Both the position numbers and the translations under genes were made by a program. A stretch of DNA of 64,000 nucleotides from Flavobacteriaceae bacterium (GTDB lineage Bacteria > Bacteroidota > Bacteroidia > Flavobacteriales > Flavobacteriaceae). Shown one piece after another: positions 4,855 to 60,139 of the stretch. Positions within the stretch are counted from its first letter, which is position 1. The number at the start of each line of letters is the position of its first letter. Below the pieces are notes generated by a model that had not been told where the DNA came from, ran no database searches, and saw nothing but the letters and a program-made list of their open reading frames with translations. The DNA is taken from assembly GCA_965224465.1 (NCBI GenBank), contig OZ245049.1, positions 3,185,895-3,249,894 of the forward strand. Reading direction: 5' to 3'.

Positions 4855-6039
4855 ATGAAAAAACAATTTTTAACAGTATTAGTTGTAATATTTGCAACAG
4901 TACAATTTGGTTATGGCCAAGATAGGAAAGAAGAAAAATCAGTTGCAGTTAACTGGGGAGGATACGTGAAAGCGGATTTTATCTATGATACCCGCCATAC
5001 TTCAGATGCGAGAGAAGGAAATTTTTTAGTATATCCAGCACCAGAAGTTTTTGTAGATGGAAGGGATGTCAATGACGAAGCTAGTTTTAATGGATATGCG
5101 ATTGAGTCTCGGTTGAATGCATCTGTTAAGGGGCCTGATTTTTTCGGAATGAAAACTTTTGGATTCATTGAAGGTCATTTTTTCGGAAACCGTGGAGATG
5201 ATATTAATGGTTTCAGTTTAAGGCATGCTTTTTTAAAGTTATCGAATGATAAAGTGGATATTTTAATTGGTCAATATTGGCATCCGACCTTTGTTACAAA
5301 TGTATCTCCTGGTACTTATGGTTTCAATGCAGGTGTTCCATATCAGGCATTTAATAGAAGTCCACAAATTCGTGTCTCTACAAAAGGAAATGTGAGGTTT
5401 ATTGGAGTTATTTTGACAGAAAGAGATTTTCAAACAGCGGGTAGAGCGAGTGTAAGGTATGCTGCTTTGCCAACTTTACATGCGCAGCTACAGGTTGGTA
5501 GTGATTTAGGTTTCTTAGGTGGTTTTGGGATAAATGTAAAAACTGTTGATACCAAACCCGGATTTAATGAAAACCTAACAAGTATGTCTGTTTTAGCTTA
5601 TGCAAAGGCACAATTAAGCGATAATATTACATGGAAATTACAGGGACTCTATGGAGGGAATATGACAGAGCTTATTCAAGCAGGTGGTTATGGATTAGAT
5701 ATGAACAATGATCCAATTGCTAATAAAACACTATCGGTTTGGACGGAGTTTAGTGGGGATTTTACAAACACCGTAGAATGGGGTCTGTTTGCTGGCTATA
5801 GTGTGGATAATGGCTATGGAGAGCAAGTTGTGGTCGTCCAAAATTCGTCCGTAGAGAGTTCGTATAGAATTTCGCCTAGAATTGGATGGAAATCTGGAAA
5901 AGTAAGGTTAGGGATAGAATTAGATTATTCGGAAGCTCAATATGGGAAGGTAAATCCTACCACAGGAGATTTTGATACTACAGGTATAAAGAGTGTTGGG
6001 AACTTTAGAACAGCTTTGTCTGCGAAGTACAGCTTTTAA
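4855..6039 (+). CDS. putative outer-membrane beta-barrel protein / porin
   Basis: Signal peptide MKKQFLTVLVVIFATVQFGYGQ, Gly/Tyr/aromatic-rich alternating pattern and C-terminal YSF. Start chosen at the in-frame ATG at 4855 inside ORF 4813..6039. Confidence 0.45.
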   Translation: MKKQFLTVLVVIFATVQFGYGQDRKEEKSVAVNWGGYVKADFIYDTRHTSDAREGNFLVYPAPEVFVDGRDVNDEASFNGYAIESRLNASVKGPDFFGMKTFGFIEGHFFGNRGDDINGFSLRHAFLKLSNDKVDILIGQYWHPTFVTNVSPGTYGFNAGVPYQAFNRSPQIRVSTKGNVRFIGVILTERDFQTAGRASVRYAALPTLHAQLQVGSDLGFLGGFGINVKTVDTKPGFNENLTSMSVLAYAKAQLSDNITWKLQGLYGGNMTELIQAGGYGLDMNNDPIANKTLSVWTEFSGDFTNTVEWGLFAGYSVDNGYGEQVVVVQNSSVESSYRISPRIGWKSGKVRLGIELDYSEAQYGKVNPTTGDFDTTGIKSVGNFRTALSAKYSF

Positions 6040-6296: not shown

Positions 6297-6456
6297 ATAC
6301 CAAATACATTTCCAAGAGACGGTTTAGAAATGGAATTATTTTTTATTTTAGCTAGGCGAAAAAAAGAAGGATAGTGTAGCTATCGTTCTGTTTTTCAACA
6401 ACGCTAGAAGGTAAAATAAACTATTTATATCGGTTATTTTGGATTGTAATTGGTAT
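6297..6456 (+). repeat. MITE-like repeat copy A (160 bp, about 30-bp imperfect TIRs)
   Basis: Begins ATACCAAATACATTTCCAAG and ends TTGGATTGTAATTGGTAT (reverse-complementary termini). Internal GATAG-N5-CTATC and CGTTCT...AGAAGG hairpins. Nearly identical to copy B. Confidence 0.85.
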
Positions 6457-6457
6457 C

Positions 6458-6615
6458 ATACCAACTACATTTCCAAGAGACGGTTTAGAAATGGAATTAT
6501 TTTTTGTTTTAGCTAGGCAAAAAAAAGAAGGATAGTGTAGCTATCGTTCTGTTTTTAAACAACGCTAGAAGGTAAAATAAACTATTTATATCGGTTGTTT
6601 TGGATTGTGTGGTAT
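6458..6615 (+). repeat. MITE-like repeat copy B, tandem to copy A with a 1-bp gap
   Basis: Near-identical to copy A. Confidence 0.85.
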
Positions 6616-8270: not shown

Positions 8271-8576
8271 AAATAATTATTTTAAGTTAATAAGAGATTT
8301 TTCAGGTTTTTAAAGCAGAATTAAATTTTTCACGACGCTATAGTCAAAGCTATAGAGCCGTAAAAAATTTGTTTTAGGCTTATTTTCAATTATCTATGAA
8401 CAAAGGAACATACAATATGAGCAGCTCTTAAAAGTGAAGTAATAAATGATGATTTTACCGTGGAAATGTAACTTTTAAGGATCAAAAATGAATCAAGAGA
8501 CACTGTTTATTGATGCTTATTGATGGGGATCTGTTTTGAGATTGTAATTTAAACGCTGTTAAAGGTGGTGTTTTGT

Positions 8577-8738
8577 TATCCCAATTAAATTTCCAAGTGA
8601 AGGTTTAGAAATGGAATTATTTTTTGTTTTAGTTAGGTGGAAAATGGAAGGAGAACCTTAGCTATTGTTCTGTTTTTTAACAACACTAGAACGTAAAACA
8701 ACCTATTTATATCGGTCATTTTGAATTGTAATTGGTAT
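8577..8738 (+). repeat. MITE-like repeat copy C
   Basis: Diverged copy (atcccaattaaatttccaag ... ttgaattgtaattggtat). Flanked on both sides by a roughly 57-bp direct repeat (8519-8575 and 8741-8800). Confidence 0.75.
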
Positions 8739-8870: not shown

Positions 8871-9036
8871 GTATTTCTCTCTCTGAAATGCTGCTCCCGA
8901 TAGAAAATTAATTTTTGGGAAGTATAAACGTGTACTCTTAAAATGAGTTTGTTGATTTAAGAGTGTCGTTTTTTCCTAAAGTTAGGGAAAGGAATGCACG
9001 TTCTGATATAGATGAGTTTTCAAGTAATACCAACTA

Positions 9037-9184
9037 TATTTCCAAGTGACGATTTAGAAATGGAAATATTTTTTGTTTTAGCTAGGCGAAAACTGGAAGG
9101 ATAGCTCCGCTATCGTTCTGTTTTTCAATAACGCTAGAACGTAAAACAACCTATTTATATCGGTTATTTTGCATTGTAATTAGT
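9037..9184 (+). repeat. MITE-like repeat copy D
   Basis: ataccaactatatttccaagtgacg ... ttttgcattgtaattagt, with a GGATAG-ctccg-CTATCG hairpin. Confidence 0.75.
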
Positions 9185-9319
9185 CTAACTGGATAGGAAA
9201 GAAATGCCGGTTGGTTTGAATGCAAGCATCTTCTGTTTTATCTAGGAGGAAAAAACGGAGAAGTATTGATGATTGTGCAGTGTTTGGAGCTGCTATAATC
9301 CAGTAAGATGGTACGGTTT

Positions 9320-15084: not shown

Positions 15085-15717
15085 TTATTTACGTCCAAAA
15101 TCGGCTGGGATCTCTCCCCAAGCTTTGGTTTCCCATTTTAATATTGTCGTGTTGTAATTGTTATTTCTTAGCCATGCTTCCGCACGTTTAATCAAGTCGA
15201 AAAGCGCTTTGTTTTCTTGAGTGATAGGAAGGTTTGTTCGGCATTGTTTTTTTTGAACCCAGCTCATTGCTATTCTCGAGTCAGAATAAATGGGGACATT
15301 GGATTTATGAATTTTTAAAAAACCTAGACCATGTACCAATGCTAAAAATTCACCTATGTTATTTGTTCCTTTTTTGTAAGGACCTTGAGTAAAATATTGT
15401 TTTTTTGATTTAGAGTCAACGCCTCTATATTCCATAACTCCTGGATTTCCTGCGCAAGCGGCATCTACAGAAATGGAAGGATATACAGGAAGTCCTATTT
15501 TTTTAAGCTCTTCTCTCGATAGAATTACTTTTTTGGTGTCTTTTCCTACGTAATCAAAATAGTTTTCTTTTAAGGCTTTTTCTGCTTCGTTTTTAGAAAC
15601 AAAAGATTTGTATTGTGCTCCTTTAAAATCAGTAATGTGTTTTTTACAGACTTTCCAAGAGGTGAAAACACCTGTTTTATGACCTTGCCATACTACATAG
15701 TACTTTTTCTTTCCCAT
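15085..15717 (-). CDS. rnhA: ribonuclease HI with an N-terminal hybrid-binding domain
   Basis: N-terminal YYVVWQGHKTGVF...W (HBD-type), then an RNase H fold with conserved acidic residues. Confidence 0.8.
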   Translation of the reverse strand: MGKKKYYVVWQGHKTGVFTSWKVCKKHITDFKGAQYKSFVSKNEAEKALKENYFDYVGKDTKKVILSREELKKIGLPVYPSISVDAACAGNPGVMEYRGVDSKSKKQYFTQGPYKKGTNNIGEFLALVHGLGFLKIHKSNVPIYSDSRIAMSWVQKKQCRTNLPITQENKALFDLIKRAEAWLRNNNYNTTILKWETKAWGEIPADFGRK

Positions 15718-15720
15718 AGG

Positions 15721-16293
15721 CTAGTTTTTCATTTTTAAAAGTACGGATTCAATAACCTGAGGAAAGTTGTTTTGCTCTAGGATGTGAATTTTTGCAGCTA
15801 CATCAGCGGCAGTGTCATTTGGAGAAAGACTTGTTTTACATTGAAAAATGATGGCTCCTTCGTCATAATGTTCATTTACATAGTGGATGGTAATTCCTGT
15901 TTCAATTTCTTTATTTGCGACCACCGCTTGGTGAACATTGCTCCCAAACATGCCTTTTCCTCCGTATTTAGGAAGCAGTGCAGGGTGGATGTTAATCACC
16001 TTATTTGGGAAGTTTTCTAATAAATTACTTGGAACTTTCCATAAAAAACCAGCTAAAATTATAATGTCTGCTTCTTTTTTTAGCAACTCTAAAACACGAG
16101 TACCTGTAAAAAAGTCAGCTTTACCGAATGTTAAGTTACTTACATTAAGTCTTTTAGCTCTGATCAAAACTTTGGCATCCTTGTTGTTAGATAAAACATA
16201 AGTAACACGTGCGATGTTACTGTTTTGAAAATAGGTAATGATGTTTTCGGCATTGGATCCAGATCCAGAAGCCAGAATTACAATTCTTCTCAT
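15721..16293 (-). CDS. purN: phosphoribosylglycinamide formyltransferase
   Basis: 190 aa with the formyltransferase core motif HPSLLP-like (HPALLPKYGG); 3 bp from rnhA. Confidence 0.88.
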   Translation of the reverse strand: MRRIVILASGSGSNAENIITYFQNSNIARVTYVLSNNKDAKVLIRAKRLNVSNLTFGKADFFTGTRVLELLKKEADIIILAGFLWKVPSNLLENFPNKVINIHPALLPKYGGKGMFGSNVHQAVVANKEIETGITIHYVNEHYDEGAIIFQCKTSLSPNDTAADVAAKIHILEQNNFPQVIESVLLKMKN

Positions 16294-24285: not shown

Positions 24286-24735
24286 ATGTCAATAAAACAT
24301 CTAAAACCAGTAAAAGGAAGCGTAGTAGAATCAAAAGAACGTAAGATCTTAGTAGCAGATTATATGATTACAAATATAGTGACGTTTTCACCAGATCAAT
24401 TAATTGTTAATGTTATGGATATATTGATAAAAAATAATATTTCAGGAGGACCTGTTGTGAATGAGAAAAACGAATTGCTCGGTATTGTTTCTGAGAGGGA
24501 TTGTATGAAACAAATTAGTGAAAGTCGATATTTCAACATGCCTATTCCTGATGCTATTGTAGACAATCACATGGCAAAAGATGTAGATACGATGGATAAA
24601 AACATGACCATTTTTGATGCCGCTAATATTTTTTATTCTTCTGGAAGGAAACGGTTTCCAATTGTGGAAAATGGTAAATTGATAGGTCAAATAAGTAGAA
24701 GAGATATTGTAAAAGCAGCATTAGATATGATGTAA
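24286..24735 (+). CDS. CBS domain pair protein
   Basis: 149 aa with two CBS repeats. The stop codon abuts MITE-like copy E. Confidence 0.8.
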   Translation: MSIKHLKPVKGSVVESKERKILVADYMITNIVTFSPDQLIVNVMDILIKNNISGGPVVNEKNELLGIVSERDCMKQISESRYFNMPIPDAIVDNHMAKDVDTMDKNMTIFDAANIFYSSGRKRFPIVENGKLIGQISRRDIVKAALDMM

Positions 24736-24893
24736 TATCAACTACATTTCCAAGTGACGGTTTAGAAATCGAATTATTTTTTGTTTTAGCTAGGTGAGAA
24801 ATCTTAGGATAGTTAGCCTATCGTTCTATTTTTAACAACGTTAGAACGTAAAATAAACTATTTATATCGGTCATTTTGGGTTGTATTTGGTGT
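24735..24893 (+). repeat. MITE-like repeat copy E
   Basis: atatcaactacatttccaagtgacgg ... ttttgggttgtatttggtgt. It starts at the last base of the CBS gene stop codon. Confidence 0.8.
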
Positions 24894-24920
24894 AATAAGA
24901 GTTTTTATTGGTTTTATCCA

Positions 24921-25016
24921 ATAAAAAAAACCGTTCAAAGATGAACGGTTTTTTTATCTCTTACCGAAGTAAGTTAGATTGAAACTTTCCCCAAATTTTC
25001 AATTTCTCTAATAAGT
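24921..25016 (-). ncRNA. candidate small RNA, copy a of a 3-copy family
   Basis: On the minus strand: -7 box TATCTTTG (TAnnTTTG); 7-bp hairpin ATTGAAA-N12-TTTCAAT; hairpin CTTAC-UUCG-GTAAG; intrinsic terminator CCGTTCA-tctt-TGAACGG followed by U8. Ends are approximate. Confidence 0.5.
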
Positions 25017-25211
25017 ATGGTACAAAGATATAGATGTTTTAGAATAGCATTGTTCGGGAAAACACATGATTAATTGTGGTTTTGCATAAAACAGAAGTTT
25101 TACTTTTTTTATCCCACTTGAAGGGTTTAATCCTATGAGGATAGGTCTTTAAAAACGAATTAGTTACCGTTTTCTTGGGGCAAATTTTTGAGGGATTATG
25201 TGGTTGGTATT

Positions 25212-25370
25212 ATACCAAATACATTCCCAAGTGATGGTTTAGAAATGGAATTATTTTTTGTTTTAGTTGTCGAAATGGATGGATAGCCTTGCTATTGGTA
25301 TATTTTTTAACAATGCTAGAACGTGAAATGAACTATTTATATCGATAATTTGGGATTGGAATTACTTGGT
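25212..25370 (+). repeat. MITE-like repeat copy F
   Basis: ataccaaatacattcccaagtgatgg ... tttgggattggaattacttggt. Confidence 0.75.
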
Positions 25371-25389
25371 TAAAATTATTTTTTTCAAC

Positions 25390-25485
25390 AAAAAAAACCG
25401 TTCAAAGATGAACGGTTTTTTTATCTCTTACCGAAGTAAGTTAGATTGAAACTTTCCCCAAATTTTCAATTTCTCTAATAAGTAT
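25390..25485 (-). ncRNA. candidate small RNA, copy b
   Basis: Identical core to copy a, with -7 box TATCTTTG on the minus strand at about 25490-25497. Confidence 0.5.
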
Positions 25486-25770
25486 GGTACAAAGATAGGA
25501 ATGTTATAGGATGTATTTGTTCGGTAAAGCGCAGGTAAGACTGTGGGTTTTCGTATTGGATTGAATTTTTTTTTCTGTGCGTTTGTAAAGTTGAGATCTA
25601 TGTATGCTTTACACTCATTTGATTTGTTAAATCTGTATTATTATATTGAATTATTTTTTGCAAGATAAAAGCTAAAATAGCTAGCATAGCTTTTTTATGG
25701 AAAGTTGGTTTTGAAAATTGGTTGTGAAAAGGAACCCCTATAATGCGACATTATAAAGTCAAATGAGGCT

Positions 25771-25915
25771 AATACCAACTATATTTCCATATGACGGTCT
25801 ATAAATTAAATTGTTTTTTGTTTTAGCTAGGCGAAAAATTTAAAGATAGCCTTCGCTATCGTTCTATTTTTTAACAACGTTAGAACGTAAAACAAACTAT
25901 TTATATCGGTGATTT
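25771..25915 (+). repeat. MITE-like repeat copy G, 5' part; interrupted by IS66 and resumes at 27923-27950
   Basis: ataccaactatatttccatatgacgg ... ctatttatatcggtgattt | IS | ggtgattttgattgtaattgtatac. Confidence 0.8.
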
Positions 25916-25994
25916 GTAAGCGTACGGAGAACTACATCTTGTAAGAAGTTAAAAATAATCTAATTTTTGCATCTAAACAAAAACGAAAATATAA

Positions 25995-26348
25995 ATGTTA
26001 GGATTAGGTACAGAACACACGTATTATTATCACTTATCTGCAGTTGATATGCGAAAAGGATTTAATGGATTAAGTGGATTAGTTAGTGAGCACATGGAAC
26101 AAGAGCGAGATAGAAATAGTGTTTATGCATTTATCAATAAGCAAAAAAATAAACTAAAACTTCTTCATTGGCGACCTGGAGGATTTGTACTGTATTATAA
26201 ACGATTGGAACGAGGTATTTTTGAGCTTCCAAAATACGACATTGAAGATGGATTAGTAGTTTTGAGTTATACCCAAATGGTTATGGTTTTAGACGGAATT
26301 AGTATTATAAATACTCAGAAAAACGAACGTTATTTAGAGGCTAAATAA
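25995..26348 (+). CDS. tnpB: IS66-family accessory protein TnpB (Orf2-like)
   Basis: 117 aa with the GFNGLSGLV motif typical of IS66 Orf2. Confidence 0.85.
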   Translation: MLGLGTEHTYYYHLSAVDMRKGFNGLSGLVSEHMEQERDRNSVYAFINKQKNKLKLLHWRPGGFVLYYKRLERGIFELPKYDIEDGLVVLSYTQMVMVLDGISIINTQKNERYLEAK

Positions 26349-26391
26349 TTCAATAAAACTGTAGGTTTTACCTGCTATTTAGTCTTGTTTT

Positions 26392-27894
26392 TTGTATATT
26401 TATAGTGTGGAAAACAATACAATAGACATACAAAAAGAGCTGGTAATTTTAAAGATTGAACTTGAAAAAACAGCTCAAGAACTAGCTGAAATTAAGCAGC
26501 AATACGAGCAGCTTAAAAGAATGGTTTTCGGGTCTAAAAGCGAACGTTTTATCCCTGTTGACACAAATCAATTGTCGCTTTTCGGAAAAATAATAGCTGA
26601 GAAAGAAGAGGCATACAAAAAACATATTGTAATCTACGAAAGAAAACAAAAGAAGAAAGGAAAGAAAAAACCTGTTCGCTCTTCTATACCTGCGCATTTT
26701 CCGCGAGTAGAAGAGATTATAGAGCCTAAGCACATAGAAGAAGGAGCTGTAAAAATAGGAGAAGAAGTTACAGAACTTTTAGAAATAACGCCTCTTTCCG
26801 TTTTTGTAAGACGAATTGTAAGACCTAAATATGCACTTCCGGAAGAAAAAGGCGTTGTTATAGCAGAATTACCAAGCTTACCGATACCTAAAGGAAATGC
26901 ATCAGCAAGTTTATTGGCCTTTATACTTATTTCAAAATTTGTAGACCATTTACCACTTTACAGATTAATTCAAATTTTTAAACGACAAGATTTAAAAGTA
27001 AGTAAATCAACAATTGGAGGATGGGTATCTAAAAGTTCGGAGCTTATCGCTCCTTTATACGATACATTTAAGGCTCAGTTTTTAGAAAATGCCAATTATA
27101 TTCAAGCAGACGAATCTCCTATAAAGGTTTTAGATAAAGACAAGAAAAAATCAACACACAGAGGGTATATGTGGGTGTATCGAAATCCTGTTAAAAATTT
27201 AGTTCTTTTTGAATACAATAAAGGGAGAGGAAAAGTTGTTCCAGAAGAGTTTTTTAAAGATTTCAATGGGACACTACAGTCCGATGGGTATGCTGCATAC
27301 CAAAACTTAACAACAAAAGGAGAAATTACTCTTTTAGGTTGCATGGCTCATGCTAGGCGGTATTTTGAGAAGGCGCTGGATAATGATCCTAAAAGAGCGG
27401 ATGTTGTTTTGTTGGAAATTCAAAAGCTATACAAGATAGAACGTAAAATAAAAGAACAAGAATTAACTATTGAGCAAACTAAAGCATATAGAGAAAAACA
27501 TGCATCACCTGTTTTAGACGGAATAGAAATTTATCTTACAAAAGAGCGAAAAAACGTACTGCCTAAAAGTGCCATAGGAAAAGCAATTGCTTATACTCTT
27601 AAAATATGGCAAAACCTAAAACTATACATCGATGATGGCAGGTTTGAAATAGACAACAATAATATAGAAAATGCCATAAGACCTTTAGCTATTGGCAGAA
27701 AAAATTATCTCTTTGCTGGCAGTCATGAGTCCGCACAAAACATAGCTCTATTTTATAGCTTTTTTGCTACTTGCAAAAAGAATAACGTAAACCCACATAC
27801 GTGGCTATGTGATGTCCTTAATAGATTACCAGAACATAAGGCTAATAAACTTTCGGAGTTACTGCCTCAAAATTGGAAGCCTGTTGATAAATAA
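26392..27894 (+). CDS. IS66-family transposase
   Basis: 500 aa with an N-terminal leucine-zipper-like region and central DDE region; LFAGS and CMAHARR motifs. Confidence 0.88.
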   Translation: MYIYSVENNTIDIQKELVILKIELEKTAQELAEIKQQYEQLKRMVFGSKSERFIPVDTNQLSLFGKIIAEKEEAYKKHIVIYERKQKKKGKKKPVRSSIPAHFPRVEEIIEPKHIEEGAVKIGEEVTELLEITPLSVFVRRIVRPKYALPEEKGVVIAELPSLPIPKGNASASLLAFILISKFVDHLPLYRLIQIFKRQDLKVSKSTIGGWVSKSSELIAPLYDTFKAQFLENANYIQADESPIKVLDKDKKKSTHRGYMWVYRNPVKNLVLFEYNKGRGKVVPEEFFKDFNGTLQSDGYAAYQNLTTKGEITLLGCMAHARRYFEKALDNDPKRADVVLLEIQKLYKIERKIKEQELTIEQTKAYREKHASPVLDGIEIYLTKERKNVLPKSAIGKAIAYTLKIWQNLKLYIDDGRFEIDNNNIENAIRPLAIGRKNYLFAGSHESAQNIALFYSFFATCKKNNVNPHTWLCDVLNRLPEHKANKLSELLPQNWKPVDK

Positions 27895-27992
27895 TCAAGG
27901 GTGTACTTTACCGTACGCTTACGGTGATTTTGATTGTAATTGTATACGTTGTTCTTTAGAAATAGATTCTCTAATCAAAATGTTATTAACCA

Positions 27993-28090
27993 AAAAAAAC
28001 CATTCATAGCTGAATGGTTTTTTTAGTGCTTACCTAAATAAGCATTAGATTGAAACTTTCCCCAAATTTTCAATTTCTCTAATAAGTATG
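27993..28090 (-). ncRNA. candidate small RNA, copy c (diverged)
   Basis: -7 box TATATTTG with TTG 19 nt upstream. Hairpin 1 is identical. Hairpin 2 is GCTTA-N6-TAAGC and the terminator is CCATTCA...TGAATGG; both keep pairing through compensatory changes relative to copies a and b. Confidence 0.5.
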
Positions 28091-28179
28091 GTACAAATAT
28101 ATACATATAGGTAGCATAGTCAATTCGGGTTAACACAGGTTAAATTGTGGTTTTCTGTAAATTAAAAACGCATCGTTTT

Positions 28180-29937
28180 TTATGTAGTTTTTATATTTAA
28201 TTGTAAGCTTAGTTCTTTTAGTTGATCTTCTGCTATTTTTGATGGAGCGTCAATCATTACATCTCTTCCACTGTTGTTTTTAGGGAAAGCTATAAAATCT
28301 CTAATGGTCTCTTGACCTCCTAAAATAGCAACCAATCTGTCCAGTCCAAAAGCCAAACCACCGTGTGGCGGTGCTCCATAAGTAAAGGCATTCATTAAAA
28401 AACCAAATTGCTCTTGTGCTTCTTCAGGAGAAAACCCTAAGTATTTGAACATCATTGCTTGCGTGTCTTTATCAAAAATCCTGATAGATCCTCCTCCAAT
28501 TTCGTTACCGTTTAATACCAAATCGTAGGCATTTGCTCTTACTTTTCCAGGGTCTGTTGCTAATAAGTGCATATCTTCTGGTTTTGGTGATGTAAATGGA
28601 TGGTGCATGGCGTGGTAGCGTTTGCTTTCTTCATCCCATTCTAACAACGGAAAGTCTACGACCCATAAAGGTGCAAATTCATCTGGTTTGCGCAGGCCTA
28701 GCGTTTCTGCCATTTCCATACGTAAAGCACTCATTTGACTGCGAACTTTGTCCGTTTCGCCACACATTACTAAAATTAAATCACCTGGTTTAGCACCCGT
28801 AGCATCTGCCCATTTTTGTAAATCTTCTTGCGTAAAGAATTTATCTACAGAAGATTTAAATGTTCCGTCTGCTAAATATTTAGCAAAGATCAAACCGCTA
28901 GCTCCTACCTGTGGTCTTTTTACCCATTTGATTAATTTGTCGGTTTGTTTTCTTGAATAATCAGCACATCCAGGAACCGCAATACCAATTACCATTTCTT
29001 GACTGTCAAAAACGGCAAAGTCTTTTCCTTGTGTAATATTGTTGATTTCGGAAAACTCCATTCCAAAACGAATGTCTGGTTTGTCGTTTCCGTATTTTTT
29101 TAAGGCATCCGCATAGGTCATTCTTGGGAATTCTGCTACGTCTACATTTTTTAACTCTTTTAATAAGTGGCGTGTCAACCCTTCAAATACTTTTAAGATG
29201 TCCTCTTGGTCTACAAAGGCCATTTCGCAGTCTATTTGTGTGAATTCTGGTTGTCTGTCTGCACGTAGATCCTCGTCTCTAAAACATTTTACAATCTGGA
29301 AATACTTGTCCATTCCACCTATCATTAACAATTGTTTAAAGGTTTGTGGTGATTGTGGTAAGGCGTAAAACTGACCTTGATTCATACGGCTTGGCACTAC
29401 AAAATCTCGTGCCCCTTCTGGAGTAGATTTAATCAAATAAGGAGTCTCAATTTCGATAAACTCTTGATCTGATAAATATTTACGAACCTCCATTGCCACT
29501 TTATGGCGGAAAATAAGATTATTTTTTACAGGGTTTCTTCGGATGTCTAAATACCTGTATTTCATACGGATATCTTCTCCTCCGTCTGTTTTGTCCTCAA
29601 TCGTAAATGGAGGAGTTACAGATTTGTTTAATACAGTAATCTTTGATGCTAGAATTTCAATAGCTCCTGTTGGCATTTTATCATTCTTAGCCACACGTTC
29701 AATAACTTCACCAGTCACTTGAATTACAAATTCACGTCCTAAGTCTTTTACTTGATCAATAAGTGCTTTATCACTGCGTTCTTCATCAATTATAATTTGA
29801 GTAATCCCATAACGATCACGTAGATCTATCCAAATCATAAATCCTTTGTCTCGTATTTTTTGTACCCAACCAGAAAGTATCACTTCTTGTCCTTTATGCG
29901 CTATTCGTAATTCTCCGTTCGTATGACTTCTGTACAT
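28180..29937 (-). CDS. aspS: aspartate--tRNA ligase
   Basis: 585 aa class II aaRS with an N-terminal anticodon-binding OB fold and FRDEDLR / GGGSIR motifs. Confidence 0.95.
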
Positions 29938-30131
29938 TTTGTAAATTTTTGTTGCAAATTTAAGGAAATCCTACGTATCTGTGCTTTTTTTTTAAGGGAA
30001 TGTCTTGTGTCTATATTTAGTTTGGCTATAAAAATCATTGAGAGTGCTTAAATTAGCGGCAAAACAATTAAATGGCAAATTCTATTCCTATTGATTAATT
30101 TGTATCTTTGTAATCTAAAATTGTTAAAAGC

Positions 30132-30964: not shown

Positions 30965-30984
30965 TAAACAGCGAAGGGCTTATG

Positions 30985-31075
30985 ATACCAATTACAATCC
31001 CAAATGATCGATATAAATAGTTTATTTTACGTTTAGCGTTGTTGAAAAACAGAACACTTTTCTTAGGTTTTTTAT
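30985..31075 (-). repeat. Truncated, degenerate copy of the MITE-like repeat, minus orientation
   Basis: ataccaattacaatcccaaatgatcgatataaatagtttattttacgtttagcgttgttgaaaaacagaac, then decays. It lies just 3' of the PAP2 gene. Confidence 0.6.
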
Positions 31076-35472: not shown

Positions 35473-35525
35473 AGTATATTTTTGTGATGGTGAAAGTACT
35501 GCTTTTCCACCACATAAGGGATTTA

Positions 35526-35692
35526 CACCAATAATTACAATCCAAAATGACCGATATAAATGGTTTGTTTTACGTTCTAGCGTTGTTAAAAAATAGAACG
35601 ATAGCTATCCTTAGATTTTTCGCCTAGCTAAAACAAAAAATAATTACATTTCTAAACCTTCACTTGGAAATGTATTTGGTATTAGTGGCTTC
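35526..35692 (-). repeat. MITE-like repeat copy H (minus orientation)
   Basis: Reverse complement of the family consensus, with a GATAGCTATC core palindrome. It lies between the LysE gene and the PadR gene. Confidence 0.8.
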
Positions 35693-35814: not shown

Positions 35815-36165
35815 ATGGGGAATCAAAAATTATATAAAGGCTCGTTACAAACAATCATTTTAAAACTATTATCAGAAAATGATAAGATGTACGGCTACGA
35901 AATCACGCAAAAGGTAAAGGCATTAACCAAAGGTGAATTACAAATTACCGAGGGCGCTTTGTATCCAGCTTTGCATAAGTTGGAAGCCGAAGGGTTATTG
36001 GATGCAGAAGTGGAGAGAGTAGATAATAGGTTGCGAAAATATTACAAACTTACAGAAAGTGGCACCAAGGAAACGGTGAATCGCTTGGTGCAATTAGAGG
36101 AGTTTATCCAAACCATGCAGCATTTGTTACATCCTAAACTTATACCAACCTACAATCCAAAATAA
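35815..36165 (+). CDS. PadR-family transcriptional regulator
   Basis: Winged-helix PadR motifs (YGYEI...GALYPALHKLE). Start chosen at the in-frame ATG at 35815. The last 8 codons are encoded by MITE-like copy I. Confidence 0.8.
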   Translation: MGNQKLYKGSLQTIILKLLSENDKMYGYEITQKVKALTKGELQITEGALYPALHKLEAEGLLDAEVERVDNRLRKYYKLTESGTKETVNRLVQLEEFIQTMQHLLHPKLIPTYNPK

Positions 36166-36302
36166 CCGATACAAATAGTTTATTTTACGTTTTAGCGTTG
36201 TTAAAAAATAGAACGATTGCTAAGCTATCCTTAGGTTTTTTTGCCAGCTAAAACAAAAAATAATTACATTTCTAAACCTTCACTTGGAAATGTATTTGGT
36301 AT
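36142..36302 (-). repeat. MITE-like repeat copy I (minus orientation), overlapping the PadR 3' end
   Basis: ataccaacctacaatccaaaataaccgat ... cacttggaaatgtatttggtat. Confidence 0.8.
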
Positions 36303-36318
36303 TACTTAATTTTTTACT

Positions 36319-55066: not shown

Positions 55067-55236
55067 CGAAAATTGCGGATTTAGGTAAAATAAAATGTGT
55101 ATTTTCACATTTAAATTGCAAACTTTACCCAAAAAGACAATGTAATTAATTCACAAACGAATAAAAATTTGTGTCTTTTTTACGATATAAAACACGACTG
55201 TTGTTGTTGTGGAACTATAAGTATATCAAATTTTAA

Positions 55237-57192
55237 TTGATAATCTCAAAAATAAATGATATGTTGAGAGGTATTATTGTACTGATATTTGTACAGTTTT
55301 ATTGTTCCATAAGTGCTTGTAATAAGTTGTTTGTAAAAAAAACAGACAGCGTTTTGTATTGTGATTCTAAATCTAAAAAACTAGAATTCTCACAAAATAA
55401 ACAATTGTTCTTTGTTAAAAAGCCTTATGATTTTGCGATTGAGGAACGTGAAACTCCGAGGGTATTAAAAACTGAATTAAATGTTAGTGACATTTATTTT
55501 CGGGGTCTTGATACGTTCCAAACTACCAAGCATCATTTGTTAGATCTGCACAGAAAGGGTTCTAAAAATAAGGATACAGTTTTTGAGATTCGCAGACTGT
55601 ATAAAATTGGCGATTATTATAGGTTTAGGAATTTTGGAGATAGTGCTTATACGTATTTTAGAGAAGGAAAAACAAAGAGCTTGAATTTAGATGATAAATT
55701 CTATGCGCAACTTGGTCTTTCTAAAATTGCGGAACTTCTTTTTGAATATGAGGATTACAAAGAGGCAGAAAATAACATTATCAAAGCAATAGCTATTTCA
55801 AGAGAGAATGATTCGTTGACAACAAAATTGTATTTTTTACAGGCAGCTGTTTATAGTGAAATGTCTGACTATGATGCCGCTTTAAATATCCTTGATCTAG
55901 TTCTCTTTAATGCAAATGAGCGTACGGATCTTTTTCTGAAAAGTGAAGTGCTTTTAAGGGAAGGAGCTATTTATCTGAAAAAAGGGGATCATAAAACGGC
56001 TTTACAGGTTTTTAACCAGGGACTTGCTTTAAAGAAGCAAGAAAACGTTCAGGATAAAACGTATGTGAAATTGATGGTAAATAGGGCGTTTTTAATGTCT
56101 AGTAAAGGTTTATCTCAAGTAGGATTACTTGAGTATGAGCTAGGCTTATCCATTGCTAAAGAAAAAGGGTACACTCAGTTGTTTTCCTTTGTTTACTTGA
56201 AAATGGCAAGACGTTTTAAGGAACTTAATAAATTGAAGGAGGCATTTAAATTCGGGAAATTAGCAATAGAATCCTCCGAAAAACAGGGGCAAGCTCCTGA
56301 ATTATTAGCGGCTATTTTGTTTACGGCATCGTTGGATAAACAAGAGGTATTGAAGTACACTGCTTTGTATTTAAAACAGCTAGATAGTATAAAGAGTTTT
56401 AAAAAAAACATGAGGACTAAAGTTGCTAAATTGAAATTTGACATCGAAGGAAAAACAAAGGAAAATCAGCTTTTAAAAAAACACAATATATTGAAAAACG
56501 AACGGTTAGAAAAAGAGCGTTTTAGAAATTTAACATCCTTGTTTATACTGTTTATTGTTCTGTTGTCTATTCTTGTAATTAGTTATGTGATTGCACAGGA
56601 ACGAAAAAAATTGATGTATAAAAACAGATTGGCTAGGGTGGTGGTAAGGGTAGAAGAACGACAAGAGTTAGCTAAAAAATTACATGATGAAATAGCAGGT
56701 GATTTAAGAGTTTTATGTTTGCAGCTCGAAAAATCAGAGAATATAGAAGTAGCAAATAGGGTTGATAAAATAAAAGAAGTAATCAGAGATTTATCTCACG
56801 AATTAACTTCAGAAAGCTTTCAAGAGGTGAGTTTTGTAGATCAGGTTGTTAATATAATTGCTGAAAATCACAGCCCTTCGCGCGTAGTTAAAGTTGTAAA
56901 TATTAAAGATGTGATGTGGATAGAAATTGAGCCGTCTATTAAAAGGGTGTTGTTTTTTTCTATGAGAGAACTTATTAAAAAATGCAATTACAATTCTTTA
57001 ACCTTTACATTTTTTATAAGTAAATATGCATTAGAAACAAGAATAACAATAGATAAAGAGCATCTAAAAAATAGTTTCCAAGATAATCAATGGGAACAGA
57101 TTAAACAGCGTGTAGCAGAAATTAATGGAGATTTGTTATGGCTAGAACTAGAGGAAGAATTTAGAATCACATTACCTATTTTAAACGTATGA
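55237..57192 (+). CDS. TPR-repeat membrane sensor with an HisKA_3-type dimerisation domain but a degenerate or absent ATPase domain (putative pseudokinase)
   Basis: 651 aa with N-terminal TPR-like repeats, one TM helix (LTSLFILFIVLLSILVISYVIA) and H-box LAKKLHDEIAGDL. The C-terminus lacks DxGxG/GxGL boxes. Stop overlaps the start of the next gene. Confidence 0.55.
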   Translation: MIISKINDMLRGIIVLIFVQFYCSISACNKLFVKKTDSVLYCDSKSKKLEFSQNKQLFFVKKPYDFAIEERETPRVLKTELNVSDIYFRGLDTFQTTKHHLLDLHRKGSKNKDTVFEIRRLYKIGDYYRFRNFGDSAYTYFREGKTKSLNLDDKFYAQLGLSKIAELLFEYEDYKEAENNIIKAIAISRENDSLTTKLYFLQAAVYSEMSDYDAALNILDLVLFNANERTDLFLKSEVLLREGAIYLKKGDHKTALQVFNQGLALKKQENVQDKTYVKLMVNRAFLMSSKGLSQVGLLEYELGLSIAKEKGYTQLFSFVYLKMARRFKELNKLKEAFKFGKLAIESSEKQGQAPELLAAILFTASLDKQEVLKYTALYLKQLDSIKSFKKNMRTKVAKLKFDIEGKTKENQLLKKHNILKNERLEKERFRNLTSLFILFIVLLSILVISYVIAQERKKLMYKNRLARVVVRVEERQELAKKLHDEIAGDLRVLCLQLEKSENIEVANRVDKIKEVIRDLSHELTSESFQEVSFVDQVVNIIAENHSPSRVVKVVNIKDVMWIEIEPSIKRVLFFSMRELIKKCNYNSLTFTFFISKYALETRITIDKEHLKNSFQDNQWEQIKQRVAEINGDLLWLELEEEFRITLPILNV

Positions 57193-59856: not shown

Positions 59857-60103
59857 AGGGTGTAAATGATGGTAGATGGACTGAAATACAGCAAGAGTCT
59901 TAGATTTAAATCTAATAATTACCTAGCATAGAACTTAGGTTCTTATACTTTTATCTTTAATTCTCAGTCATTTCAGAAAAGCACACGTGTAAATGTGTTT
60001 TACCGTTACTGATTTATAGGATACTATGTATATTTGTAAGGTACTTGATATATAAATTGCTAGTTTGAAGTTATTATAAGTACTAAAATTGAAATGAAAA
60101 AGG

Positions 60104-60139
60104 GAAAAAAGCTATCTTTTAAAGATGGCTTTTTTTTTT
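60104..60139 (+). terminator. orphan intrinsic-terminator-like hairpin inside the 470-bp intergenic region
   Basis: A6-GCTATCTTT-t-AAAGATGGC-T10. It lies about 250 bp downstream of the regulator stop and about 190 bp upstream of the TBDR start. Confidence 0.45.

Follow-up and report, generated by a model that had tools for sequence, protein, structure and literature searches.

Three closely similar genes for a predicted small RNA (sRNA) lie on the minus strand between two housekeeping genes, aspS (aspartate--tRNA ligase) and a CBS-domain protein gene, in the window, the 64-kb stretch of DNA analyzed here, which comes from a marine-type member of the Flavobacteriaceae. Together with their counterparts in related genomes they make up, judging from comparative sequence evidence, a real, previously uncatalogued and clade-restricted family of tandem sibling sRNA genes. 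The reading of these elements as a functional, independently transcribed sRNA family is supported by conserved synteny, sharp boundaries, covariation, the absence of an open reading frame, and the absence of a match in Rfam.

Post-transcriptional regulation in the Bacteroidota is poorly mapped. Members of this phylum largely ignore Shine-Dalgarno pairing, they have, to our knowledge, no Hfq, and almost all of the characterized sRNAs that we know of come from gut Bacteroides. The candidate family described here is from Flavobacteriaceae, is cleanly delimited and backed by conservation, and offers a tractable entry into this field, with an invariant domain that carries a GGGG loop, a non-canonical promoter element whose spacing is fixed, and a natural variation from one to three gene copies. 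The promoter element could lead to a regulator, and the invariant domain to targets or to a protein partner. The reach of the finding is limited to a single genus-level clade, known mostly from metagenome bins.

Gene copies, conservation and RNA structure

The intergenic space at 24736-28179 is bounded by the CBS-domain gene (24286-24735, plus strand), a conserved convergent neighbor, and by aspS (28180-29937, minus strand), the conserved upstream neighbor transcribed in the same direction as the RNAs. Taken from the predicted +1 through the end of the U-run, copy a occupies 24923-25018 (a predicted 96-nt transcript; covariance-model score 128.6 bits), copy b 25390-25485 (96 nt, identical to the copy a transcript at 96/96 positions), and copy c, which adjoins aspS, 27992-28089 (98 nt; 122.8 bits). 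The original prediction of three minus-strand copies of a common unit of approximately 100 nt thus holds, with an offset of at most 2 nt in position: a 20-nt core is found three times in the window, for an expectation of 0.02, and a 53-nt stretch is identical across the three copies. The initial 44 nt of copy c are the same as in copies a and b. Tandem siblings are understood here as two or more adjacent, same-strand paralogs that have a promoter and a terminator each, and three such copies are present in the window.

Identity between copies a and b is 100% over the 108 nt from the -7 box to the terminator, against 80% in the flanking core promoter, 60% and 52% further upstream, and 52% in the spacer that follows the terminator; the perfect identity could come in part from gene conversion. 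The copies are embedded in larger units, A (24733-25209), B (25210-25769), and C (25770-25916 plus 27932-28195). Unit B has approximately 100 nt more than unit A (25640-25720), including a motif of an A-run, a hairpin and a T-run (AAAAGCTA...TAGCTTTTTT) that looks like a further bidirectional terminator.

Relatives were drawn from the same genus-level clade of Flavobacteriaceae, at no less than 90% AspRS identity, and comprise three NORP Flavobacteriaceae metagenome-assembled genomes (MAGs), JGI metagenome contigs, and two ENA scaffolds. Eleven copies of the RNA were found over six genome types (the window and five others), all at the same syntenic site, with the gene order PAP2, TatA, aspS, RNA(s), convergent CBS gene and M28 peptidase common to the relatives. 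Copy number ranges from one (L002/L011 and L007) through two (L003, L004 and L008) to three in the window. Over the 5' 45 nt there is no variation among 10 of the 11 copies, in genomes whose aspS genes are 85-88% identical overall and 63-70% identical at third codon positions, a pattern that indicates strong purifying selection on the 5' domain of the predicted RNA. The remaining copy belongs to L007, the closest relative by aspS (88% nucleotide identity), whose single RNA (5838-5933 of its contig) is shortened by 17 nt in the 5' domain, a loss that takes in the 5' arm of the first hairpin. Despite this loss, a 5-bp stem is re-formed as ACUUU-GGGG-AAAGU. L007 is a natural deletion variant, usable to map the functional core.

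Outside the clade, the covariance model had no match at the locus in outgroups of approximately 80% AspRS identity (Aureivirga marina, Lutibacter profundi and two further lineages), which have a different gene 16-48 nt downstream of aspS. In the genome collection, the 20-nt core matched nothing beyond three MAGs from the same clade and, by chance, one Patescibacteria MAG; a metagenome scan with a promoter-plus-seed pattern returned only contigs of the same clade and three chance matches devoid of the structure. Searches of IMG/VR and of phage and plasmid sequences gave nothing relevant. Since neither these searches nor the outgroup scans found the RNA elsewhere, the family appears to be lineage-restricted, as judged by exact-pattern searches. 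Within the window, one further weak covariance-model match (60029-60136, plus strand; 20.6 bits, E about 0.05) is probably merely an A/T-rich terminator-like region.

A comparison with Rfam had been proposed along with the original prediction, and no known family claims the RNA. The whole window has zero matches to the 4227 models of Rfam 15 at gathering thresholds, and in a permissive scan of 24600-28300 the best match, to STnc370, reached 29 bits against a cut-off of 54 and aligned the terminator only. Neither tRNA nor tmRNA genes were found in the window. It had also been allowed that the unit might be the 3' end or terminator region of a duplicated protein gene. The RNA does always follow aspS, but it has a promoter of its own and lies behind a terminator-like hairpin. 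An sRNA derived from the 3' untranslated region of aspS is unlikely: between the aspS stop codon and the RNA there is a terminator-like hairpin, with its T-run, followed by a conserved promoter, and this promoter recurs in front of the second and third copies, a long way from aspS.

The three-hairpin fold is common to all variants (z-scores from -4.2 to -5.3). The minimum free energy is -25.6 kcal/mol for copy a (z = -4.17) and -26.8 kcal/mol for copy c (z = -5.02), and these folds contain every structural element anticipated for the window copies, namely hairpin 1, hairpin 2, and a terminator with U8. In copy a, hairpin 1 spans 24978-25003, with the GGGG loop at 24989-24992, hairpin 2, of the c(UUCG)g type, spans 24960-24973, and the terminator stem at 24931-24948 is followed by the U8 run at 24923-24930, all on the minus strand. 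Hairpin 1 has an AUUGAAA/UUUCAAU stem and the loop AUUUGGGGAAAG.

Paired cells amount to 98.6% in the alignment of the family (A2), compared with 16-50% when the partners are slid, and double-sided changes occur at four base pairs, divided equally between hairpin 2 and the terminator. The observed covariation score was reached by 0 of 500 shuffles and the count of double-sided pairs by 10 of 500, although the covariation comes from only about six independent sequence types and its statistics are correspondingly weak. Compensatory changes are thus found in hairpin 2 and in the terminator, not in hairpin 1.

The terminator consists of a G+C-containing stem of 7-9 bp, in which two base pairs covary, followed by U7-U9 in 10 of the 11 copies and by UUUU in L008_2. 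The change from G-C in copies a and b to A-U in copy c, where the stem reads CCAUUCA/UGAAUGG, had been taken as compensatory, and it is a true double change. The same claim for hairpin 2 did not survive within the window: CUUAC-UUCG-GUAAG in copies a and b and GCUUAU-UUAG-GUAAGC in copy c have the core CUUA/UAAG in common, and copy c differs by an extra outer G-C pair, gained through an indel, and by a closing pair changed from C-G to U-G. True compensatory changes in hairpin 2 emerge only with the relatives, most of which have GUCUAC-UUCG-GUAGAC, while L007 has CUUGC-UACUUUG-GCAAG, a further compensatory change from CUUAC/GUAAG to CUUGC/GCAAG. Because several compensated forms exist, hairpin 2 is best described as a predicted structural module whose stem sequence is free. 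A T-box-like or aspartate-related role, suggested by GUC/GAC triplets in hairpin 2 of the relatives, was rejected, as these triplets are missing from window copies a and b.

Hairpin 1, being invariant, has zero support from covariation, and it is partly deleted in L007, so that its conservation could reflect sequence and not structure. In the RNAalifold consensus, UUU/AAA closes the GGGG loop in every copy. The common denominator of all copies is, in these models, UUUGGGGAAAGUUU displayed as a GGGG-capped hairpin, and this candidate seed is invariant in 11 of 11 copies.

Promoter and upstream element

In Flavobacterium psychrophilum, the sigma-A box TAnnTTTG is located at -12 to -5, and this position was used to place +1 of the three window copies at 25018, 25485 and 28089 (PMC9723704). 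The -7 boxes of the original prediction are present as TATCTTTG at 25023-25030 for copy a, TATCTTTG at 25490-25497 for copy b, and TATATTTG at 28094-28101 for copy c, as is the TTG located 19 nt upstream of the copy c box. In an ungapped alignment of all 11 promoters, every one of the 11 copies has the TAnnTTTG box. Variation at -4 to -1 (TACC, TATC, TAGT, CGCC, AACC, TAGA) gives way to conservation at the predicted +1, which ends with the U-run. In silico, each RNA thus has a promoter to itself, correctly spaced relative to the conserved 5' end.

Positions -13 to -34 are variable, and a second block of conservation follows upstream of them. The pentamer CCGAA at -39 to -35 is invariant and lies exactly 22 nt upstream of the -7 box in all 11 copies (25053-25057 for copy a, 25520-25524 for b and 28124-28128 for c). 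Directly upstream of CCGAA is the palindrome AAAnCCRCA-N8-TGYGnTTT, with zero indels among the 11 copies (25059-25083, 25526-25550 and 28130-28154, respectively). The promoter regions of copies a, b and c, all on the minus strand, thereby extend over 25023-25083, 25490-25550 and 28094-28154, and the whole upstream element, AAAnCCRCA-N8-TGYGnTTTnCCGAA, occupies -65 to -35 in all copies from the window and from L002-L008. No further CCGAA-N22-TAnnTTTG promoter was found in the window, where a lone match with one mismatch is within chance expectation.

The palindrome is open to two readings. Since its R and Y positions co-vary (CCACA/TGTG versus CCGCA/TGCG, with the intermediate form CCACA/TGCG), it would fit a small hairpin with A and T runs, that is, an insulating terminator; and since its geometry is strictly fixed, it would also fit an operator, bound by a regulator. 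The palindrome of copy c begins approximately 26 nt past the aspS stop codon and may double as the aspS terminator. Among the 11 promoters there is no conserved TTG at -33, and CCGAA stands in its place. For want of this TTG the promoter may depend on an activator, and the sigma factor assignment is uncertain, because the upstream element departs from the canonical -33 box.

Possible mode of action and relation to known sRNAs

The explanation that we favor as a whole, with somewhat better than even confidence, is that of independent noncoding RNA genes of approximately 96 nt whose products act in trans through the invariant 5' domain; trans action through this domain is in itself probable on the sequence data. 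Transcription would start from a sigma-A type promoter (TAnnTTTG at -12 to -5, CCGAA at -39 to -35), with the palindromic hairpin just upstream as insulating terminator or operator, and the non-canonical, strictly spaced upstream element would make it regulator-dependent. The predicted transcript begins with a short single-stranded end and an A/U-rich hairpin capped by the GGGG loop; its 3' part has a stabilizing hairpin of variable sequence, in most cases c(UUCG)g, and ends in a strong intrinsic terminator. The functional surface would be the invariant 5' 45 nt, chiefly UUUGGGGAAAGUUU, which could base-pair in trans with C-rich mRNA sites (about UCCCCAAA) and alter their translation or stability. 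Additional gene copies would give a higher dosage. Within the clade the family has expanded in tandem from one to two to three copies, always between aspS and the CBS-domain gene. The most likely mode, we infer, is pairing with C-rich sites, with protein binding as its main rival.

In a target scan of the 48 translation-initiation regions of the window, which covers about 1% of the genome, the best duplex was matched by 6% of shuffles, and the conserved neighbors (aspS, the CBS gene and the M28 peptidase gene) have no significant or convincing site. Upstream of aspS, at 29950-29975 and also in L007, L008 and L011, there is a conserved AGGAUUUCCUUAAAUUUGCAAC with a -7-box-like motif TAAATTTG approximately 22 nt before the ATG, which implies a very short aspS leader. 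As a recurrent target site it was rejected, for it overlaps the promoter-like box TAAATTTG and is probably untranscribed; the partial complementarity of AGGAUUUCCUUAAAUUUGCAAC to the hairpin 1 region of the sRNA is probably fortuitous. Two other sites in the window are within chance expectation: a near-complement of the core, AAACTTTACCCAAA, at 55120-55133, in the intergenic region before the ORF at 55237-57192, and an 11-bp complement of the core, AACUUUCCUCA, at approximately 15755-15770 on the minus strand, just upstream of the ORF at 15085-15717 and within the preceding ORF.

The rival of protein binding supposes that the RNA binds or titrates a protein, such as an RRM-type RNA-binding protein, a ribosomal component or a nuclease, through the GGGG-capped hairpin, and that extra copies raise the titration capacity. 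Multi-copy expansion is typical of titrating RNAs. The exposed GGGG-loop hairpin is found in all 11 copies and is rebuilt on a different stem in L007, which suggests a determinant of shape plus sequence; in addition, both arms of hairpin 1 are fully conserved, beyond the needs of a short seed, and no convincing mRNA target was found nearby. However, each RNA offers one candidate site and known sponges usually have several, no candidate partner is encoded at the locus, and absent targets say little when the search covers only about 1% of the genome. We regard protein binding or titration as a possible but rather unlikely function. Quite improbable, in our view, is that there is no stand-alone RNA and that the copies are duplicated terminator or intergenic DNA at the convergent aspS-CBS junction, kept alike by duplication or gene conversion, possibly with recombination between copies of the MITE-like repeat described below. 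Such a junction does require terminators, the RNA terminator is bidirectional in form (A-run, stem, T-run), and the repeats flanking each unit in the window could drive unequal crossing-over. Nevertheless, the element is kept in relatives that have no such repeat, and there the CBS gene has a separate terminator of its own. Moreover, the best conserved part is the 5' 45 nt with the -7 box and not the terminator, its conservation across genomes is far above that of aspS third codon positions, and the identity of copies a and b ends exactly at the limits of the transcription unit.

The extreme invariance of hairpin 1 in the face of its zero covariation, together with the fixed geometry of the upstream palindrome, could also be read as the mark of an untranscribed DNA-level site in the conserved 53 nt, for instance an operator or a recombination or partition site. 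This is highly improbable, given that the invariant block lies between a -7 box at the correct spacing and a strong terminator, that the two downstream helices covary, which would be meaningless for a DNA site, and that no similar site occurs elsewhere in the window. Finally, the RNA was originally described as free of ORFs, and indeed no frame of at least 20 aa is common to the copies. The sole recurrent short frame is initiated by TTG (MKIWGKFQS..., 13-22 aa depending on the copy) and is open in most copies. Its start codon is, however, buried in the hairpin 1 stem and is lost with the 17-nt deletion of L007, its C-terminus and length differ in every variant, and the compensatory changes of hairpin 2 fall inside it, so that a micro-peptide product is extremely improbable.

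A bolder variant can be imagined, in which the invariant GGGG-capped hairpin docks on a C-rich element of the translation apparatus or on a dedicated RNA-binding protein, and the RNA acts as a regulator-switched, dosage-dependent global modulator. Bacteroidota keep but sequester the CCUCC anti-Shine-Dalgarno tail of 16S rRNA, which would be an example of such an element. We consider this a long shot. If true, it would explain the selection for one, then two, then three gene copies, and the CCGAA/palindrome promoter would let a regulator switch the modulator on.

Returning to the favored reading of independent trans-acting sRNA genes, tandem siblings are well established elsewhere, as OmrA/OmrB in enterobacteria, PrrF1/PrrF2 in Pseudomonas, AbcR1/AbcR2, and LhrC1-4 in Listeria. 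Like these, the family described here consists of paralogs arranged head to tail within a single intergenic region, all of which have a promoter and an intrinsic terminator of their own; the paralogs are near-identical in one domain, which here is the 5' 45 nt, and have diverged in the rest, and copy number varies among related genomes. Unlike these, it has a Bacteroidota host and a conserved domain that forms a predicted GGGG-loop hairpin and not a linear single-stranded seed, and it shows neither sequence nor Rfam relationship to any of them.

Closer in phylogeny are GibS and FopS of Bacteroides thetaiotaomicron, multicopy sRNAs with TAnnTTTG-type promoters and a conserved 5' region that is thought to be the seed; the GibS promoter has in addition a special upstream motif for an unidentified regulator (PMC7366714; PMC11697453). 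The candidate family resembles them in phylum, promoter type, multiple copies, conserved 5' region and special upstream promoter motif. Yet the FopS consensus comprises a single-stranded 5' stretch and a terminator only, and its copies are dispersed round the genome (PMC11697453), in contrast to the three hairpins and strictly tandem arrangement at one syntenic locus found here in Flavobacteriaceae and not Bacteroidaceae. Sequence similarity and Rfam matches do not place the RNA in FopS/GibS, the architecture of which is compared as described in PMC11697453. The Rfp sRNAs of F. psychrophilum are likewise intergenic, structured and genus-restricted flavobacterial RNAs that have no Rfam matches, and the pairing region of Rfp18 is a stem-loop (PMC9723704). 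By description (PMC9723704), Rfp18 differs in belonging to another genus and in not being presented as a tandem multicopy RNA.

MITE-like repeats and an IS66 insertion

Several features of the locus go beyond the original prediction: the copies lie within larger units, a dispersed repeat of approximately 160 nt follows each of them, and an insertion sequence of the IS66 family lies between copies c and b. The repeat is found at 24733-24900, between the CBS-gene stop codon and the terminator of copy a; at 25210-25375, between copy b and the upstream region of copy a; and at 25770-25916, with its right end resuming at approximately 27932-27957 past the IS66 insertion (all plus strand). Other copies are at 6297-6460, 6458-6608, 8576-8738, 9025-9188, 30979-31055, 35523-35684 and 36140-36304, with a fragment at 2249-2282; the two at 6297-6608 are fused head to tail. 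The repeat is approximately 160-170 nt long and noncoding, and its copies, at least ten in 64 kb, or about one per 6 kb (an unusually dense arrangement), are 75-87% identical (75% between those of units A and B). It has imperfect 23-nt terminal inverted repeats (ATACCAAnTACATTTCCAAG... and ...TTGTAATTGGTAT) and an interior hairpin followed by a T-run. Short, noncoding, dispersed and bounded by terminal inverted repeats, it has the features of a MITE. It is absent from all related syntenic loci and from the plasmid collection.

The sRNA unit and the MITE-like repeat are separate entities, because the latter is dispersed in the window and absent from related loci. On the same ground, a 470-bp tandem repeat comprising both blocks was rejected as a single functional unit.

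The IS66-family element (25917-27923, plus strand; 2007 bp) was inserted in the right end of the third MITE-like copy, splitting unit C and coming between copies c and b. The terminal inverted repeats of the element begin with GTAAGCGTACGG, of the GTAAGCG type, and an 8-bp target duplication, GGTGATTT, is present at 25909-25916 and 27924-27931. By Pfam, the two ORFs within it encode TnpB_IS66 (25995-26348; E = 4e-29) and DDE_Tnp_IS66 (26392-27894; E = 1e-93), and these ORFs, the inverted repeats and the 8-bp duplication assign it to the IS66 family. The 78 nt before tnpB are too few for a tnpA-like first ORF. The TnpB of this element is also recorded on a second contig, which suggests that there are more copies of it in the genome.
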